Source: Octopus vulgaris (Eukaryota). Taken from it: DNA of 64,000 nt. Below the pieces are notes generated by a model. That model searched no databases and was not told where the DNA came from. It saw nothing but the letters and a program-made list of their open reading frames with translations. The position numbers were made by a program, and so were the translations under genes. The stretch is taken from positions 32,116,001-32,180,000 of the forward strand of contig OX597815.1 of assembly GCA_951406725.2 (NCBI GenBank), written 5' to 3'. This document shows, in pieces, positions 9,947 through 57,470 of the stretch (position 1 is its first letter; every line of letters starts with the position of its first letter).

Positions 9947-10532
9947 TGTAACGAACTTAGTGAGGTGTGAATATCTTGTCTTGTACTTTCGGGGTACAAG
10001 AAAGCAATCTCTCACTAGCCGTTGCTTTAATAATCCAGAATCTCTACTAGTCAGAAACAACAAGACGCAGACGTAAAATATATATATACTACTTTATTCT
10101 CTTTCTTGGTAACAATGACAATAATTGTGTTATCTGATGTCCTTGGTTCGGGGCGCGCGAGGCTGAAAGTAAATCGATTGTAATATTTACAATGTCCAGC
10201 CGCCAAAAACAGAAAGGGGTCAAGATGGCGTCGAACAGGGAAGTTGAATGTGGTCGGCAACAATTTGGTTAAAGGCATTCGGCCGACTGCTACTATCAAC
10301 CGGAGAGAAAATATATCGTGACCGCCGCCTTCAATCGCTGGGTCCCAAGTTGCCGCTTGCTGCTGCTAGTGGTCAAACGTTCTACGATCCCCCTGCCTTG
10401 GCCAGGGTCGTGCTTCCGGTGGTTCGCGCATGCGCGAGAGGGCCCTTCCTTTCTGTGCCTTGGTAAAGGCACCAACACGCGCGAAATACAAATGGACGGT
10501 GCGCGAGCGCGCGCCGTTGTAGGATCACTACA
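9947..10532 (-). repeat. LTR copy 1 (3' LTR)
   Basis: TGTAACGAAC...GATCACTACA; minus-strand AATAAA at 10093-10098. Confidence 0.9.
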
Positions 10533-10543
10533 GGCTCCCTCCA
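10533..10543 (-). promoter_or_regulatory. Polypurine tract (second copy at 12631-12641)
   Basis: Minus strand reads TGGAGGGAGCC immediately before the LTR start TGTAGTG. Confidence 0.75.
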
Positions 10544-12021
10544 GTGCGTACGCACGAAAGGAAACTTATTGTAGTGACTTTAAAACTCAAGGTGGACACC
10601 AGATAACCAAATAGCACACAATAATATAATGGCAAAATTTATAACATACACAAGAAATTTACTAAAGGAAAAAGAGAAAAAATACTCAATGTGCAAAAAT
10701 CAAGAGTGCATGCATGAAGGTGTATACGTCACAAAGTATAGAACCTTCCGCTGAAGGGAGCGGAAGAAAAGGCAGAACTCACAGTTATTGAACCTAAACG
10801 AAATTAAAATCCAACTTCTCTAAAGGTAGTTGATCCTGCGAAATAGCAGTTAAATCAATTGCTGCAGGAGAGGAAATGGAATTGACAGAAGCTCGCTAGT
10901 AACACAAAAAGGCAAAAGTGCAAACATGCTGGTGTGATGCGCGGCACAGATAATTTTCTGTTAATTACGTGACCAACAAGTGGACTAACAGGGAAAAATA
11001 ATTACGCCTAAACATGGCGCAGCGCATGTGAACATCCGACGTCTATGAGTCGGGAAAAGAATTAGGCTAACGCAAACGTGTTGCAAAAACAAGGCAATAC
11101 ACGTGCGAAGCAAAAGGCGCATGAAATGCAATAAGGGCTTGCCAGACCGAAAAAACAGCAAGAATATGCCAGTGGTTAAGCGATTATATGCCTTGTTCGT
11201 ACAGGAACAAAGGTATGACATGCTGGCGCGTTATAATGGACAAACAACCCTCTCTATGTATACGTGACCGCTAGGGTCTATAGAAATGAGGGGTGTCCAC
11301 AAAAGGCAAATTTAGCATGGAACAAACAAGCGAGAAAAGCATGTGTGACGTATGTATGTGAGAGAGAGCATTTATGTGTGTGTACGTGTGTGCGACAGAA
11401 ATACATACAAGGTGAATGCGAGCAAAATATAAAAACAGCGCATAGAAAAAAATGTCTCTCAGGTGCTATTTCAGACAAGAATTAATTTACCAGTCTGTAA
11501 TAGCCTGATGCACAATAGCAGTTCGTTCTGTAACAGAAATGTTGAAATCACAAAATGCAGATGCCGGTTGAACACATATCGTGTCGCGGTTGTGGCTTCA
11601 ATGCTGTGACAGGTTAACTGGAACAGAAGAAATCTCGTAGATAGTGCTGGGCTGTGAATTCTTGGTGTGCTAATGCACAAACGGCAAGTGGACCAAACTT
11701 CCGCGAGTTGCTATGTACATCTTGTGGAGGTCGACGGTGTTGAAAGGCGACAGTGGTGGAGGAAGGCGACTGTAGTGGACTTGGGACAACATCGTTCTTA
11801 GTGATGATGGCGACGAAGATAGTGACGACGTGAAGTAGACAGACGACGATGATGACGTTCGTCATATTGGCTGTAGAATAAGAAAGAGGCTCCTTCTACA
11901 ACTGTTTGTGGTGGCCGGAAACAAATCGTCGAAAGATGAATGCGTAGAGTTAAATCGTGTTCCGACTTCGCAGAAAAACTGGATTTTTTTGTTGATAAGT
12001 GATCTCTGGTTTTAGACCAGA

Positions 12022-12041
12022 ATCACGTCGGGAGGTCACCA
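12022..12041 (-). promoter_or_regulatory. Primer-binding site, tRNA-Trp type
   Basis: Minus strand TGGTGACCTCCCGACGTGAT versus the classical tRNA-Trp PBS TGGTGACCCCGACGTGAT; 2 nt after the LTR end. Confidence 0.85.
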
Positions 12042-12043
12042 GT

Positions 12044-12630
12044 TGTAACGAACTTGATGTGAGTTATGAATATCTTGTCTTGTACTTTCGGGGTACAAGA
12101 AAGCAATCTCTCACTAGCCGTTGCTTTAATAATCCAGAATCTCTACTAGTCAGAAACAACAAGACGCAGACGTAAAATATATATATACTACTTTATTCTC
12201 TTTCTTGGTAACAATAACAATAAGTGTGTTATCTGATGTCCTTGGTTCGGGGCGCGCGAGGCTGAAAGTAAATCGATTGTAATATTTACAATGTCCAGCC
12301 GCCAAAAACAGAAAGGGGTCAAGATGGCGTCGAACAGGGAAGTTGAATGTGGTCGGCAACAATTTGGTTAAAGGCATTCGGCCGACTGCTGCTATCAACC
12401 GGAGAGAAAATATATCGTGACCGCCGCCTTCAATCGCTGGGTCCGAAGTCGTCGCTTGCTGCTGCTAGTGGTCAAACGTTCTACGATCCCCCCTGCCTTG
12501 GCCAGGGTCGTGCTTCCGGTGGTTCGCGCATGCGCGAGGGCCCTTCCTTTCTGTGCCTTGGTAAAGGCACCAACACGCGCGAAATACAAATGGACGGTGC
12601 GCGAGCGCGCGCCGTTGTAGGATCACTACA
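12044..12630 (-). repeat. LTR copy 2 (shared middle LTR)
   Basis: Near-identical to LTR1 and LTR3; flanked by a PBS on one side and a PPT on the other. Confidence 0.9.
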
Positions 12631-14119
12631 GGCTCCCTCCAGTGCGTACGCACGAAAGGAAACTTATTGTAGTGACTGCAAAACTCAAGGTGGACACCAG
12701 ATAACCAAATAGCACACAATAATATAATTGCAAAATTTATAACATACACAAGAAATTTACTAAAGGAAAAAGAGAAAAAATACTCAATGAGCAAAAATCA
12801 AGAGTGCATGCATGAAAGTGTATACGTCACAAAGTATAGAACCTTCCGCTGAAGGGAGCGGAAGAAAAGGCAGAACTCACAGTTATTGAACCTAAACGAA
12901 ATTAAAATCCAACTTCTCTAAAAGTAGTTGATCCTGCGAAATAGCAGTTAAATCAATTGCTGCAGGAGAGGAAATGGAATTGACAGAAGCTCGCTAGTAA
13001 CACAAAAAGGCAAAAGTGCAAACATGCTGGTGTGATGCGCGACACAGATAATTTTCTGTTAATTACGTGACCAACAGTGGTCTAACAGGGAAAAATAATT
13101 ACGCCTAAACATGGCGCAGCGCATGTGAACATCCGACGTCTATGAGTCGGGAAAAGAATTAATCTAGCGCAAACGTGTTGCAATATTCAAGGCAATACAC
13201 GTGCGAAGCAAAAGGCGCATGAAATGCAATAAGGGCTTGCCAGACCGAAAAAACAGCAAGAATATGCCAGTGGTTAAGCGATTATATGCCTCGTTCGTAC
13301 AGGAACAAAGGTATGACATGCTGGCGCGTTATAATGGACAAACAACCCTCTCTATGTATACGTGACCGCTAGGGTCTATAGAAATGAGGGGTGTCCACAA
13401 AAGGCAAATTTAGCATGGAACAAACAAGCGAGAAAAGCATGTGTGACGTATGTATGTGAGAGAGAGCATTTATGTGTGTGTACGTGTGTGCGACAGAAAT
13501 ACATACAAGGTGAATGCGAGCAAAATATAAAAACAGCGCATAGAAAAAAATGTCTCTCAGGTGCTATTTCAGACAAGAATTAATTTACCAGTCTGTAATA
13601 GCCTGATGCACAATAGCAGTTCGTTCTGTAACAGAAATGTTGAAATCACAAAATGCAGATGCCGGTTGAACACATATCGTGTCGCGGTTGTGGCTTCAAT
13701 GCTGTGACAGGTTAACTGGAACAGAAGAAATCTCGTAGATAGTGCTGGGCTGTGAATTCTTGGTGTGCTAATGCACAAACGGCAAGTGGACCAAACTTCC
13801 GCGAGTTGCTATGTACATCTTGTGGAGGTCGACGGTGTTGAAAGGCGACAGTGGTGGAGGAAGGCGACTGTAGTGGACTTGGGACAACATCGTTCTTAGT
13901 GATGATGGCGACGAAGATAGTGACGACGTGAAGTAGACAGACGACGATGATGACGTTCGTCATATTGGCTGTAGAATAAGAAAGAGGCTCCTTCTACAAC
14001 TGTTTGTGGTGGCCGGAAACAAATCGTCGAAAGATGAATGCGTAGAGTTAAATCGTGTTCCGACTTCGCAGAAAAACTGGATTTTTTTGTTGATAAGTGA
14101 TCTCTGGTTTTAGACCAGA

Positions 14120-14139
14120 ATCACGTCGGGAGGTCACCA
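14120..14139 (-). promoter_or_regulatory. Primer-binding site, tRNA-Trp type (second unit)
   Basis: Identical to 12022-12041. Confidence 0.85.
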
Positions 14140-14141
14140 GT

Positions 14142-14729
14142 TGTAACGAACTTGATGTGAGTTATGAATATCTTGTCTTGTACTTTCGGGGTACAAGAAA
14201 GCAATCTCTCACTAGCCGTTGCTTTAATAATCCAGAATCTCTACTAGTCAGAAACAAAAAGACGCAGACGTAAAATATATATATACTACTTTATTCTCTT
14301 TCTTGGTAACAATAACAATAAGTGTGTTATCTGATGTCCTTGGTTCGGGGCGCGCGAGGCTGAAAGTAAATCGATTGTAATATTTACAATGTCCAGCCGC
14401 CAAAAACAGAAAGGGGTCAAGATGGCGTCGAACAGGGAAGTTGAATGTGGTCGGCAACAATTTGGTTAAAGGCATTCGGCCGACTGCTGCTATCAACCGG
14501 AGAGAAAATATATCGTGACCGCCGCCTTCAATCGCTGGGTCCCAAGTCGCCGCTTGCTTCTGCTAGTGGTCAAACGTTCTACGATCCCCCTGCCTTGACC
14601 AGGGTCGTGCTTCCGGTGGTTCGCGCATGCGCGAGAGGGCCCTTCCTTTCTGTGCCTTGGTAAAGGCACCAACACGCGCGAAATACAAATGGACGGTGCG
14701 CGAGCGCGCGCCGTTGTAGGATCACTACA
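14142..14729 (-). repeat. LTR copy 3 (5' LTR)
   Basis: TGTAACGAAC...GATCACTACA followed by the TGTA TSD. Confidence 0.9.
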
Positions 14730-21941: not shown

Positions 21942-22120
21942 CATGTATATATATTTATACATGTATGTATATTCACCTTCGAAACGTAGGGTAGATGAAA
22001 CCATGGCGACTGAAGAAGGGAATTTTTCCATGTGTTATTTGTCCTGTACTCTATTTTTTTTTTGTTGTTTAAGAAAAATGTCCAGTTCCTTGGGTTTGTG
22101 TCTATGTTTTCATTTCTCAT

Positions 22121-22230
22121 TGTGTTCGACGTTTTTTGGTGTCCTGTACTCATATATGCGTGTATATATACACGTAGAGGTAGGTACGTACATATATGTA
22201 TATATATATATGCATATGTTTTATTTATTA

Positions 22231-22278
<48 letters not shown>

Positions 22279-22338
22279 TAATAAATAAAACATATGCATA
22301 TATATATGTATATATATATGCATATGTTTTATTTATTA

Positions 22339-22378
<40 letters not shown>

Positions 22379-22484
22379 TGAATAAAACATATGCATATAT
22401 ATATACATATATGTACGTACCTACCTCTACGTGTATATATACACGCATATATGAGTACAGGACACCAAAAAAACGTCGAACACA
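22121..22484. repeat. Nested inverted repeat
   Basis: 22121-~22234 is the reverse complement of ~22372-22484; an inner TATGCATATGTTTTATTTATTAATAT unit alternates orientation. Confidence 0.85.
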
Positions 22485-22594
22485 AAAGCTATATATATAT
22501 TTATATATATATATAATATATAATAAATATATATATATATATATATATGTATACTACCTACGTGTTAGTTTCACCGCTTACATTACAATGAACG

Positions 22595-28626: not shown

Positions 28627-28725
<99 letters not shown>

Positions 28726-28895
28726 ATATATATATATATATAAATAAATATAAGAGAATGGTCACTATGTGGCTCATTCTAGCACTAGAAAATCCAAAAG
28801 GTTTCAACCACAAAAATACATGTTTCCCGTGAAAGTCAGTACGATTGTTAGCTCATACGAACAGGGCAAATAAAAAATAACAAAAATACAGATTA

Positions 28896-28976
28896 TTTTG
28901 GGACAATTGTTTCGCTATTAATGAATTAAATGTAATTTTACTTACAAAAAACCCACTTGTAGCTCCTCGGCCAAAA
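28896..28976 (-). ncRNA. Hammerhead motif (U4C variant), left arm
   Basis: Exact mirror of 29169-29249. Confidence 0.7.
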
Positions 28977-29168
28977 CTATCTGGATGAAATCCACTCAAT
29001 CACACGCCAGATTTTACCATAACGATAAATACACGTTTCCATGAAAGTTTGGCGCGCTGTTAGTAGGGGCATTTGAATTATAACGTCGGATGTAATCAAT
29101 TGAACCACACGTGTATTTATCGTTATGGTAAAATCTGGCGTGTGATTGAGTGGATTTCATCCAGATAG

Positions 29169-29249
29169 TTTTGGCCGAGGAGCTACAAGTGGGTTTTTTG
29201 TAAGTAAAATTACATTTAATTCATTAATAGCGAAACAATTGTCCCAAAA
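29169..29249 (+). ncRNA. Hammerhead motif (U4C variant), right arm
   Basis: TTTTGG-CCGAGGA-GCTA...TAGC-GAAA-CAATTG-TC-CCAAAA; GUC at 29241-29243. Confidence 0.7.
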
Positions 29250-29523
29250 TAATCTGTATTTTTGTTATTTTTTATTTGCTCTGTTCGTATGAGCTAACAA
29301 TCGTACTGACTTTCACGGGAAACATGTATTTTTGTGGTTGAAACCTTTTGGATTTTCTAGTGCTAGAATGAGCCACATAGTGACCATTCTCTTATATTTA
29401 TTTTTGTATAAAATATTATAATATATAATAAAATATTATAATAATCCAGGTTTCTCGAAGCACTGGGCCACTTGGTGTTGAATAGATATACTATTAAATT
29501 AGTATCTAATTCTCTCACCCTTA

Positions 29524-29602
<79 letters not shown>

Positions 29603-36339: not shown

Positions 36340-37166
36340 TAAACACCTTTAATTTTCAAAATCATTTATTTAATACACAAAGCGAACAATTGAAATGTAA
36401 TCGATAGGTAGGACTACATACTTTAGTATTTAGCTGACATTCCCTTTGCAGTTTTTAATTCAGAAACTCTTTTTGATATTAAACTGATGAGCTTTGTGAT
36501 TGTCTCTTGTGGAACGTCTGCCCACTTTTCACGCAACAATCGAAACAATTCATTTTTAGATTTAGGTTTCTGTCGAGTTTTTCGTATAGCTCTATCTAGT
36601 ATGCTCCAAAGGTTTTCAGTTGGGTTCATGTCAGGAGATTGGTTCGGACAAGGAAGCTTTTTGATCCCATTTTCAGTCAGCCATTGTTGATTCCTTTTCG
36701 CTGTGTGGCATGGAGCCACATCTTCCATGAATAAAAACTCATTTTTCGTTATGTTATAGTGTGAATACATCGGAAGTAGTCGATGTATTTTTCAGAGTTT
36801 ATAGTTCCAACACATTCGATCAGCTCAGAACGACCATAGCTAGTGACAGCTCCCCATACCATTACAGAGATACGGCTATGTTTCACTGTTGGCTGGAGCG
36901 TTTCAAATCACATTCTTGATTTGAAACGCTCCAACCAAACTACGTCCACTGTCTGAAAATAATGCAAATCAGGATTCATCTGAGAAAATCACTCTATCCC
37001 AAAATTAACTGGATTTTTCGGACATCTCCTTAGCCCATTTCTTTCTTTTCATGATATTAATTGGTTGAAGGAGAGGTTTTTTTCTAGCAACTCGTCCTTA
37101 ATACCAAATCTTGCGCAGATATGTAACATACGTTCTTCGACTAACTTCTAGTTGTTTTGCAATGTC

Positions 37167-46924: not shown

Positions 46925-48225
46925 CTCTATTTCCTGCCGTGAGGTAGGCTCGTCTGAAACCCTTGACAAGAAGAGATCCAGTTTTGTTTTAAAGACACTT
47001 ACAACCACACCATGCATGTCTCTCAGACATTTTGGAAGGACATTAAAGAGCTGTGGGCCTTTGAAGCCCACACTGTTGCAGTATCTGGTCCTGTATTTTG
47101 ATGACTATGATCTTTGGTAATATGCAGTGGCACCCCGTTCTGCAGTTTGAGTAAATTTCAATGCCAAAGTTTGGTACTAGGCCTTCTAGGATTTTCCAGA
47201 TGTATATCACTGCATATCTTTCCCGCCTTCGCTCTATGGAGAAGAGTTTTAATTCTTTCGATCTTTCCCAGTAGCTCATACGTTGCATCGAGACGATTTT
47301 CTTACTGTAGCTTCATTGGATTGCTTCGAGTATCGCCGTGAATTTTATATTGTGTGGCGACCATAGTTGGCAGCAGTAGTCGAAGCTGAGGACGTAAGTT
47401 CTCCAAGGGATCATCAATGCTTCTCTTTCTCTTGTTTTGAAAGTTCGCAGGATCCAACCAGCCTTCCGTCTGCATTTTATTACCAAATTGGTAATATGCA
47501 CTTGATAAGATGCATCAATACTCATGCCAATGCCCAGGTCACGCAATTTTGATTTAGAGATTTAAGTTCCTTCTGGGCCAGTGTATCCTGTCTGCATGTC
47601 GTCTAACTTTGTGTGCTGATAGCGTAGGGCCTGGAATTTTCCCGCATTAAACTGTATGTTATTGTTCTCAGCCCACCTGTATGTTGCGTCCAACTCTCGT
47701 CGCAGATATGTGATATTTCTAGGATTTTGTAATGTCTGAGAGACTTTTGTGCCATCTTAATAACTTGTAAGGGTGACTATCTGAGCAGCTGCAGGCATAT
47801 CTGAGAGGGCCACTACGAATAACAGTGATCCTAAGACAGTGCTCTGTGGAACACCACTTGCTATTTGTGTTTCCTTAAAGGTGGCACCATTGGCTACTTT
47901 TGCCTGGCGTCTATCTTTTAGAAAGTTGTGCAGCCACTCTCCAAGTTTCCCACCTATGCCGAGATCACGCAGTTTGTGACATATCATACCATGGTCGACT
48001 TTGTCAAAAGCTTTTGCAAAGTCAAGATATATTACATCCACGTTTGAGTCATTCAGCAGCTGTTTTAACACCCGGTCGGAGTGTTGCAGGAGCTGTGTTA
48101 GACAGCTTCTACCTGGTCGAAATCCATGCTGGGTGTCAGTCAGCAAGTCATTTTCTTCAAGGAACGCGATTAGTTTCTTGCAGACTATTCGTTCCATGAC
48201 TTTGCTGATGTGTGAGGTCAGAGAG
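46925..48225 (-). mobile_element. Same LINE family, RT core to near the 3' end
   Basis: ISLTSHISKVMER, QHGFRPGRSC, YLDFAKAFDKVDH, SGVPQSTVLG; stops and frameshifts. Confidence 0.92.
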
Positions 48226-48484
48226 ATATGTATACACACAGAAACTAAAATAGATCGCAGTATAGGTGCTTCGGCACACTCAGTCACATTTAGTGACAAT
48301 AAATTTTTTCCTTTATAGTATTATATTGCGCCTAGCCGTTTATATTAATTTCAACAAGCCGTGAAAGGTGTAGAGACCAGTGCAGTGAGACTGAAATTTT
48401 TAAAAAAAAAAGAACTACACGCACCACGACAGAAATTGTAATAAAAAAAAACCTTTATTCTATCTTTTTTTTTTAAGTATTAAT

Positions 48485-53127: not shown

Positions 53128-53430
53128 TAAATTTCATTTAATGTACACTGCACAAAGATAAGAGCTGCTAATAGTTTCTTGCTATGAATACACGTGCCCA
53201 AACAGATTCTGATATTGTGCCTTGCGTCTCCAAGCAATTCTGAGGCTCTGAGCACATGGTCCGTTCTCGGTGCTCTGATCTTCAAATAGACCAAACAGAA
53301 CATGTGCTCAAAGCCCGTGGATTGCTTGGAGACATAAGTAGCGTTATATAAACCTGTCTAGCCACGTGTTTTCCATGCAAGAAACTGTCTGTAGCTCTTA
53401 TCTTTATGCAATGAACATTAAATGATATTT
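53128..53430. repeat. Old foldback element / long-TIR MITE
   Basis: Imperfect ~135-bp arms, e.g. AAAGATAAGAGC/GCTCTTATCTTT, GTCTCCAAGCAAT/ATTGCTTGGAGAC, TGAGCACATG/CATGTGCTCA. Confidence 0.8.
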
Positions 53431-55959: not shown

Positions 55960-56400
55960 CATTTAAGTGTCCATTTTTGCAATGAAAAGTGGTTTTGTAG
56001 TATCTGTGTTACTGCCAACAAATGAGACACCCATCAAGAGTGATAACTTAACAAGCCTATTAGTGTCTGTGGTTGTTTAGCAAAGCTCGGCGTTGGGTTA
56101 TCAATAAGCGCTTTCAAACTTTCCAGATCAGATTGCAAGGAATAATTTTCTACTTTGTAACAAATAACAGGCGTGTTTGGCAAAATAACTTTTGTAAATG
56201 TTCAATGTAATGTTAAGTTTCTTAGTGGCTGAAATAAATCGCGCCAAGTTGCAATCGTTTTGCCAGTGATAATAACATCGTCAAGATAGGTGTGAATTGC
56301 TTTGATATCAGTGTCAGCGTTCTCAGTAATTATACCATCCATCACTCTTTGAAAAGTACTTGCAATATCAATCACGCTATTGTGTGGAATCTTGTGGTAT
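55960..56400 (-). mobile_element. Gypsy LTR-retrotransposon RT remnant
   Basis: ASTFQRVMD...TYLDDVIITGKT. Confidence 0.75.
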
Positions 56401-56466
56401 GTTTCTTTCAAATCTAGTCTGCTACAGAATTTAGTAAACAGAACGCACGAGATAATCAATATCTAA

Positions 56467-57002: not shown

Positions 57003-57118
57003 TTAAGAGGCGGACAGAGTGTAACGATTTGTCGTTTATAAACAAGGCGTTGTTAGTCACTGTTTCTTGCTACTACTTCTTGTGTTCTTCATGGAGAGTC
57101 AGCGAAGGCTCAATAATA

Positions 57119-57470
57119 CCTATTTCTTTACTACCCACAAGGGGCTAAACACAGAAGGGACAAACAAGGACAGACAAACGGATTAAGTCGATTATATCGA
57201 CCTCAGTGCGTAACTGATACTTATTTAATCGACTCCGAAAGGATGAACGGCAAAGTCGACCTCGATGGAATTTGAACTCAGAGCGTAACGGAAGACGAAA
57301 TGTTTAGCGGTATTTCGCCCGTCTTTACGTTCTGAGTTCAGGTTTCACCGAGGTCGACTTTGCATTTCATCCTTTCGGGGTCGATAAATTAAGTACCAGT
57401 TGCGTACTGGGGTCGATCTAATCGACTGGCTGCTTTCCCAAAAATTTTGTGCCGTGTACCTAGAGTAAAA
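57119..57470. mobile_element. Two SINE family B copies fused head-to-head
   Basis: Minus copy 57119-~57300, plus copy ~57296-57470. Confidence 0.85.

Follow-up and report, generated by a model that had tools for sequence, protein, structure and literature searches.

A hammerhead-bearing foldback in Octopus vulgaris, probably left by a single Penelope-like insertion into a (TA)n tract

Insertions of Penelope-like elements (PLEs) have been described as carrying an inverted 5'-truncated copy and a tail of 30-40 bp at one end, with a bias towards TA (10.1101/2021.04.23.441226). Several PLE clades are described as preferring microsatellite targets (10.1101/2021.04.23.441226; PMC8969392), and one account attributed the head-to-head junctions to self-priming on the antisense template (PMC3846280). 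A report on Schistosoma described pairs of hammerheads on opposite strands, 100-700 bp apart, and hammerheads with a palindromic helix III were there thought to act as dimers and to have low activity (PMC4209133). The PAc protein of an Anolis Poseidon element was reported to cut and extend AT-rich DNA on both strands from two start sites, and hammerhead-mutant RNAs were still inserted by PAc in vitro (PMC11167929). Recently active Penelope-like families have been reported in Octopus vulgaris (PMC13282606).

We analyzed a 64,000-nucleotide stretch of Octopus vulgaris DNA (the window). The surrounding window is AT-rich and rich in microsatellites, and TA10+ tracts make up 3% of it. We found a foldback of 662 bp, whose features are listed in Table 1. 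Its two inverted arms of 295 bp are separated by a 72-bp spacer, and the pair 28865/29280 is the only mismatch between them. The longest stop-free run in the six frames of 28742-29530 was 68 codons. Re-measurement thus reproduced the geometry given by an earlier sequence-only reading (295-bp arms, 1 mismatch, a 72-bp spacer and no ORF). (TA)n borders the insert on the left and on the right, and a target-site duplication is unreadable inside (TA)n. The mirror symmetry ends at 28742, with unique, differing flanks beyond the TA tracts, and the insert is asymmetric, since the sequence of a repeat family seems to take in the spacer and to run on for about 125 bp after arm 2. The right boundary of the repeat likely reaches about 29528, past the end of arm 2. 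The insert is thus likely laid out as TA, a 295-bp inverted copy, a forward copy of about 490 bp with a one-sided extension of about 125 bp, and TA. No second copy of the family was found elsewhere in the 64-kb window, and no direct repeat was found within 29037-29529.

Table 1. Features of the foldback and its borders (positions in the window)
Positions	Strand	Feature	Basis
28633-28742	.	Left-hand (TA)n, in tracts of 42 and 10 units; probably one side of the insertion target	
28742-29036	-	Arm 1: inverted, shorter, 5'-truncated copy of family positions 29109-29403, tail absent	
28895-28977	-	Hammerhead fold in mirror image; its core position 4 (28969) is likewise C	Descriptor scan
29027-29036	+	Final 10 bases of arm 1, which likely double as upstream sequence of the family; a microhomology that would contain the true junction	
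29027-29331	+	Closed three-way RNA structure (predicted), with an outer stem of 29027-29085/29263-29331, a hairpin at 29088-29162 and the hammerhead at 29163-29255	Folding z, family letters
29037-29108	+	Spacer: ordinary family sequence, additional 5' portion of the forward copy	X2 depth, X14 contig
29109-29403	+	Arm 2: duplicated portion of the forward copy	
29163-29255	+	Hammerhead fold of type I, with stem I at 29168-29174/29244-29250, stem II at 29182-29231 and GAAA at 29232-29235	Descriptor and folding
29175-29181	+	Core CCGAGGA in the Octopus copy, CTGA(G/C)GA in the family	Run depth at 29176
29235-29243	+	Palindromic helix III (ACAATTGT) and C17; cleavage is predicted to follow 29243 and likely requires a dimer	Sequence; self-duplex -6.4 kcal/mol; description in PMC4209133
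29404-29528	+	One-sided 3' extension, tail-like, likely of the same family; ends in a predicted hairpin at 29474-29519	Run depth
29529-29598	.	Right-hand (TA)n, one tract of 35 units; probably the opposite side of the insertion target	

Several other repeats were observed in the window. Another near-perfect foldback, at 22120-22485, has (TA)n inside and arms of about 115 bp that differ by one substitution and small indels; a hammerhead was not found in it, and it looks like a local template-switch duplication. A tandem at 9947-14729, with a period of 2097 bp and 98.6% identity, contains a TGTA...TACA unit of about 587 bp three times and looks like a young non-coding LTR-internal-LTR-internal-LTR array. 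A degenerate old palindrome of about 300 bp at 53129-53430 is MITE-like, with arms about 73-78% alike, and two SINE-like copies in opposite orientation form an imperfect palindrome at 57116-57427. Fragments at 47760-48320, 56205-56462 and 36426-36791 gave Pfam matches to RVT_1 (LINE-like) and DDE_3 (Tc1-like).

The repeat family was surveyed in public sequencing runs. Part of the stretch was shared by 20 of the 24 runs listed, under six organism codes. None of the runs sharing it is recorded as RNA, which says nothing about expression. Four runs were aligned to 29037-29525, two as contigs (X2 and X14) and two as raw reads (X21 and X22). X2 and X14 probably come from another individual than the window, perhaps from another species. 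In X2, 866 contigs aligned to 29037-29525, with a summed depth mostly of 1-7e5 and of about 45 in the shallowest records. Summed depth is not copy number, and a rough correction for contig overlap gave a few thousand copies. The summed depth of the spacer in X2 (2.4-6.7e5) was comparable to that of the arm, and an X14 contig crosses the spacer into the arm (29037-29146). The one-sided extension was also high-copy. Apart from the masked 29408-29443, it was as deep as the arm, with 1.2-5.7e5 in X2 and up to 339 in X14 over 29445-29525. The raw-read runs, of about 1.9 Gb each, gave 0 (X21) and 6 (X22) family reads, which are too few to show a palindrome. Two joints of 2 reads each in X22 are not interpretable, and the locus itself has no direct partial tandems. 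The contig runs show a high-copy hammerhead family with a canonical core, whose surround of about 300 nt is predicted to be strongly folded. We found no description of it in the literature searched, which lay outside Repbase, Dfam, most subscription journals and supplements.

The earlier reading had taken the foldback for a very recent miniature unit derived from Penelope. The results do not support a unit of this kind that travels as a palindrome. The spacer and right flank are as deep as the arms, and no strand-change joint at this junction occurred among the joints listed for X2 and X14 (for X14, all but 1 joint and 9 loose ends; a further 31 loose ends and 891 pieces stood outside the display). 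Furthermore, 2 contigs of X14 share a loose end at 29194, and 13 of its first 14 letters agree with 29184-29197 read as the reverse complement (chance about 8e-4). This is a second head-to-head junction of the family, at 29184/29194, with breakpoints unlike those of the present locus. As the breakpoints of the other foldback are different, the mirror was likely built anew at each insertion and does not belong to a palindromic unit. The Penelope-type origin, with an inverted pLTR-like copy, was supported by the head-to-head order, the one-sided tail-like extension, the TA target and the type I hammerhead with a palindromic helix III. The young age was supported too, and the miniature palindromic unit was not.

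Whether the Octopus copy itself occurs in the runs was judged from the share of its words. If nothing but the private sites and the junction were absent, a share of 0.55 was expected, and the best four of the 24 runs gave 0.58, 0.56, 0.54 and 0.51. The test uses five near-private sites, is partly circular for X2, and does not resolve C4 alone (0.55 versus 0.63, 41 words). The observed shares match the expectation, and thus the copy itself is absent from the best public runs. At 29355-29368 the window has a perfect mini-hairpin, TTCTAG-TG-CTAGAA, at which most family copies differ at four sites; its letters, common to about 5-19% of X2 depth, probably mark a subfamily. Clustered A>G changes were observed at 29328-29377 in low-depth contigs of X14, a run only guessed to be RNA, and not in X2. 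Among the changes seen only in X14, 6 of 11 were A>G, carried by 2-3 low-depth contigs of a run that has no matched DNA run; they give a weak hint of A-to-I editing of family transcripts.

The hammerhead was searched with a type I descriptor in which the core was C.GA.GA, position 4 was free and a helix III loop was not demanded. Nothing but the two mirror copies matched in the 64 kb. When 29037-29403 was shuffled 20,000 times with its dinucleotides preserved, no shuffle gave a match. The 101-nt hammerhead stretch had a folding z of -4.06. Three helices surround the core, which is open at helix I as in type I topology. Stem I has 7+5 bp and stem II is long (about 17 bp), and the helix III palindrome ACAATTGT forms just 2 bp when monomeric. 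No hammerhead was among the 37 Rfam matches with E up to 5, nearly all of which lay on microsatellites. The hammerhead sits in the terminal, duplicated arm of the repeat.

The Octopus copy deviates from the CUGANGA core by a C at 29176 and its counterpart in the other arm. In the family, T at this position accounted for 535,503 of 540,469 of the X2 depth (99.1%) and for 100.9 of 104.6 of the X14 depth (96%); the remaining depth, with other letters, came to about 0.9% in X2 and to 3.7 of 104.6 in X14. Core position 7 is a variable site, G or C, with 37% C in X2, and no other core change reached at least 5% of depth among the changes listed. The family core is therefore canonical (CUGANGA / GAAA / UH). 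Since U4 is dominant across the family, C4 is private to this copy or rare, and likely neutral decay. The fold and the C4 that had been read in each arm were thus confirmed, and C4 as a trait of the family was not. In stem II, changes at 29189 and 29193 turn G-U into A-U. A lone X2 contig of single-copy-like depth jumps from the core to the first base past the predicted cut (29178-29244); it could be a fossil of copying over cleaved RNA, or a hairpin deletion. A GTAAGT motif resembling a splice donor was observed in loop II of the hammerhead (29200-29205); 0.2 are expected by chance, and it was not taken to mark an intron.

The forward copy is also predicted to fold beyond the hammerhead. The folding z of 29037-29325 was -4.72 for the sense and -3.23 for the antisense strand, and 56 other tile-strands of the window had a median of -0.11 and a lowest value of -4.27 (12 shuffles each). 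Introducing the eight family-majority letters made the fold 7.9 kcal/mol better, whereas random sets of the same type made it 7.0 worse on average and 0 of 1000 were as good. The private changes of the Octopus copy thus weaken the predicted fold. Covariation was weak. Among transitions polymorphic in X2 at paired sites, pairing is retained in 7 of 8 (P 0.07). Compensatory changes on both sides of a pair were not observed, and variants that break a pair are listed at 29088, 29116, 29162 and 29170. These results give modest evidence for selection on RNA structure. In the tail region, the family letters changed the fold energy by +0.4 kcal/mol and 390 of 600 random sets were as good; a helix between 29357-29364 and 29459-29466 is predicted to join the arm to the extension. 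Folding models predict that the forward copy forms a closed RNA of about 305 nt that presents the hammerhead, with the junction of the foldback at the base of its stem. The stretch at the junction of arm 1 and spacer is the reverse complement of 29309-29331 in 20 of 23 columns, a score reached by 1 of 5000 shuffles. This suggests that arm 1 ends in 10 bases that belong equally to the upstream sequence of the family, so that the junction would fall within a microhomology where the outer stem has its base. Immediately upstream of 29037 the family is predicted to read AAATACAYGT; if true, this would link the inversion to the outer stem formed by the RNA itself.

Taken together, the foldback is probably a single abortive insertion by Penelope-like machinery, which likely copied the end of a high-copy family that bears the hammerhead into (TA)n, head-to-head. 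A GIY-YIG endonuclease would cut the TA tract, and reverse transcription would start near 29529. The cDNA would pass the uncleaved hammerhead and extend as far as about 29027-29037, where the long outer stem of the RNA begins. Its 3' end could then snap back on a match of about 10 nt at 29109-29118 and copy itself to 29403, where AT-rich sequence would join the remaining TA end. Alternatively, two RNAs, each primed from one of the target strands, would leave an identical product. The template may already have carried C4, or conversion may have spread it from arm to arm. The RNA copied was likely uncut at the hammerhead. The locus may serve as a well-preserved fossil of a so far unexplained step, namely how PLEs make their head-to-head inversions and tails and whether hammerhead cutting is needed.

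The parent element was sought in the window and in sequence collections. Pfam searches with 140 of the 161 window ORFs gave two RVT_1 and one DDE_3 match, with no GIY-YIG and no host gene. Exact and gapped hammerhead patterns hit 0 loci in metagenome contigs, viral contigs and prokaryote genomes, and no RT or GIY-YIG ORF linked to the family was found in the ORFs scanned or the collections searched. The parent was more probably of the Neptune, Nematis, Hydra or Poseidon type, because Naiad and Chlamys lack hammerheads. A retrozyme-like, non-autonomous parent is possible, though no tandem was seen. It is also conceivable, at a rather low probability, that the family is itself a non-autonomous 'ribozyme SINE' of about 500 nt that uses Penelope machinery. 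Its RNA would start near 29027 and display the hammerhead on a closed fold of 305 nt, its cDNA would snap back by self-complementarity, and cleavage-poor copies such as C4 would be favored because uncut RNA gets inserted. If true, this would provide a mechanistic account of the head-to-head inversions of PLEs and would mean that many long hairpins have been seeded for ADAR.

One mismatch in 295 bp gives a 95% interval of 0.01-1.9%, and private divergence is about 1%; the copy is therefore likely young. Arms of a hairpin can be homogenised, so arm identity is a weak clock. An older single copy of the family might have decayed by about 1% within TA before a local template switch in repair or replication made the foldback, or an old insertion palindrome might have had its arms homogenised. 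Both arms do carry three changes almost missing from X2 (29176, 29289 and 29316), the fold is weakened by the private changes, and the foldback at 22120-22485 is a second, unrelated one centred on TA. However, the common changes could mark a subfamily in some species outside the sample, published PLEs are known to invert as they insert, and the family has a head-to-head junction with other breakpoints, so that we consider a later foldback unlikely. An artefact of assembly or library foldback is very improbable. The full copy was in none of the listed runs (best share 0.58) and the raw reads gave just 0 and 6 family reads, but one site distinguishes the arms, the symmetry breaks off at 28742 with differing unique flanks past the TA tracts, and the layout fits a known insertion product. 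We give still less weight to an insertion at TA of a DNA transposon, either a MITE or a foldback element, that ends in long inverted repeats. It would suit the long inverted arms, the lack of an ORF, the TA context and the high copy number; yet the repeat extends past the right arm by about 125 bp, the spacer continues the family sequence linearly, a canonical hammerhead is conserved in the arms, and the junctions vary between copies, the inverted repeats not being shared termini.

It had further been proposed that the miniature unit has a working C4 hammerhead and that its RNA could alternate between cleaving itself and forming long dsRNA. We modeled the read-through RNA. The full hairpin had -527 kcal/mol, compared with -22.5 for the ribozyme fold, and the predicted probability of stem I was about 1e-80; the outcome is therefore set by the transcription start site. 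Stem I was predicted to persist only when the transcript starts downstream of about 28980, and nascent arm 2 was predicted to zip onto arm 1 during synthesis. The ribozyme is thus predicted to be always buried in read-through RNA, which speaks against a switch, as there is no balance of two states with a start upstream of about 28980. The dominance of U4 in the family and the lack of a joint at this junction among those listed in X2 or X14 point the same way. C4 is nevertheless present in both arms, and a small share of the family depth is not T at 29176. A natural U4C variant has been described whose activity in vitro was considerably lower and which kept viroid infectivity (PMC3088659). The 6 of 11 A>G changes in X14 are a weak editing hint, from a run that is only guessed to be RNA and lacks a matching DNA run. 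On balance, the switch is quite improbable. Any read-through RNA would instead be a passive 295-bp hairpin and a possible substrate of ADAR or Dicer. The locus has no predicted function; it is most likely ordinary transposon debris and probably functionless.

The foldback was compared with known systems. Metazoan non-LTR retrozymes, as described (PMC7229834; 10.64898/2026.07.22.740005), resemble the Octopus family in being non-coding and high-copy, with a canonical type I hammerhead, a highly self-paired predicted RNA and ties to PLE pLTRs. Unlike them, the Octopus family has only one sense hammerhead and no direct tandem in 493 bp or in the listed joints. Head-to-tail monomers that each carry a hammerhead, as in retrozymes, were not found within 29037-29529; a monomer of more than 493 bp elsewhere is possible. 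With the PLE hammerheads described in Schistosoma (PMC4209133), the Octopus hammerheads share the type I topology, the palindromic helix III with its predicted dimer, the long helix II and the G10.1-C11.1 pair, and they lie on opposite strands about 270 bp apart, as in the Schistosoma pairs. They differ in the long helix I (7+5 bp), the absence of an extra nucleotide after A9, the helix II of about 17 bp and C4. Naiad favors (TA)n and Chlamys (CA)n, and both lack hammerheads, unlike the Octopus family. The Octopus foldback also differs from PLE insertions in having no ORF, direct tandem or linked parent, and its tail is about 125 bp compared with the published 30-40 bp. The ORF of Anolis PAc starts in stem II, whereas the Octopus copy has no such ORF start. 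The PAc report nevertheless offers a mechanism that may be shared, with AT-rich DNA cut and extended on two strands, two start sites that define the tail, and an uncleaved template (PMC11167929). As in the endonuclease-bearing PLE insertions described previously (PMC3846280; 10.1101/2021.04.23.441226; PMC8969392), the Octopus locus combines a head-to-head inverted 5'-truncated copy, an extension at one end, an AT or microsatellite target and a type I hammerhead in the terminal repeat.
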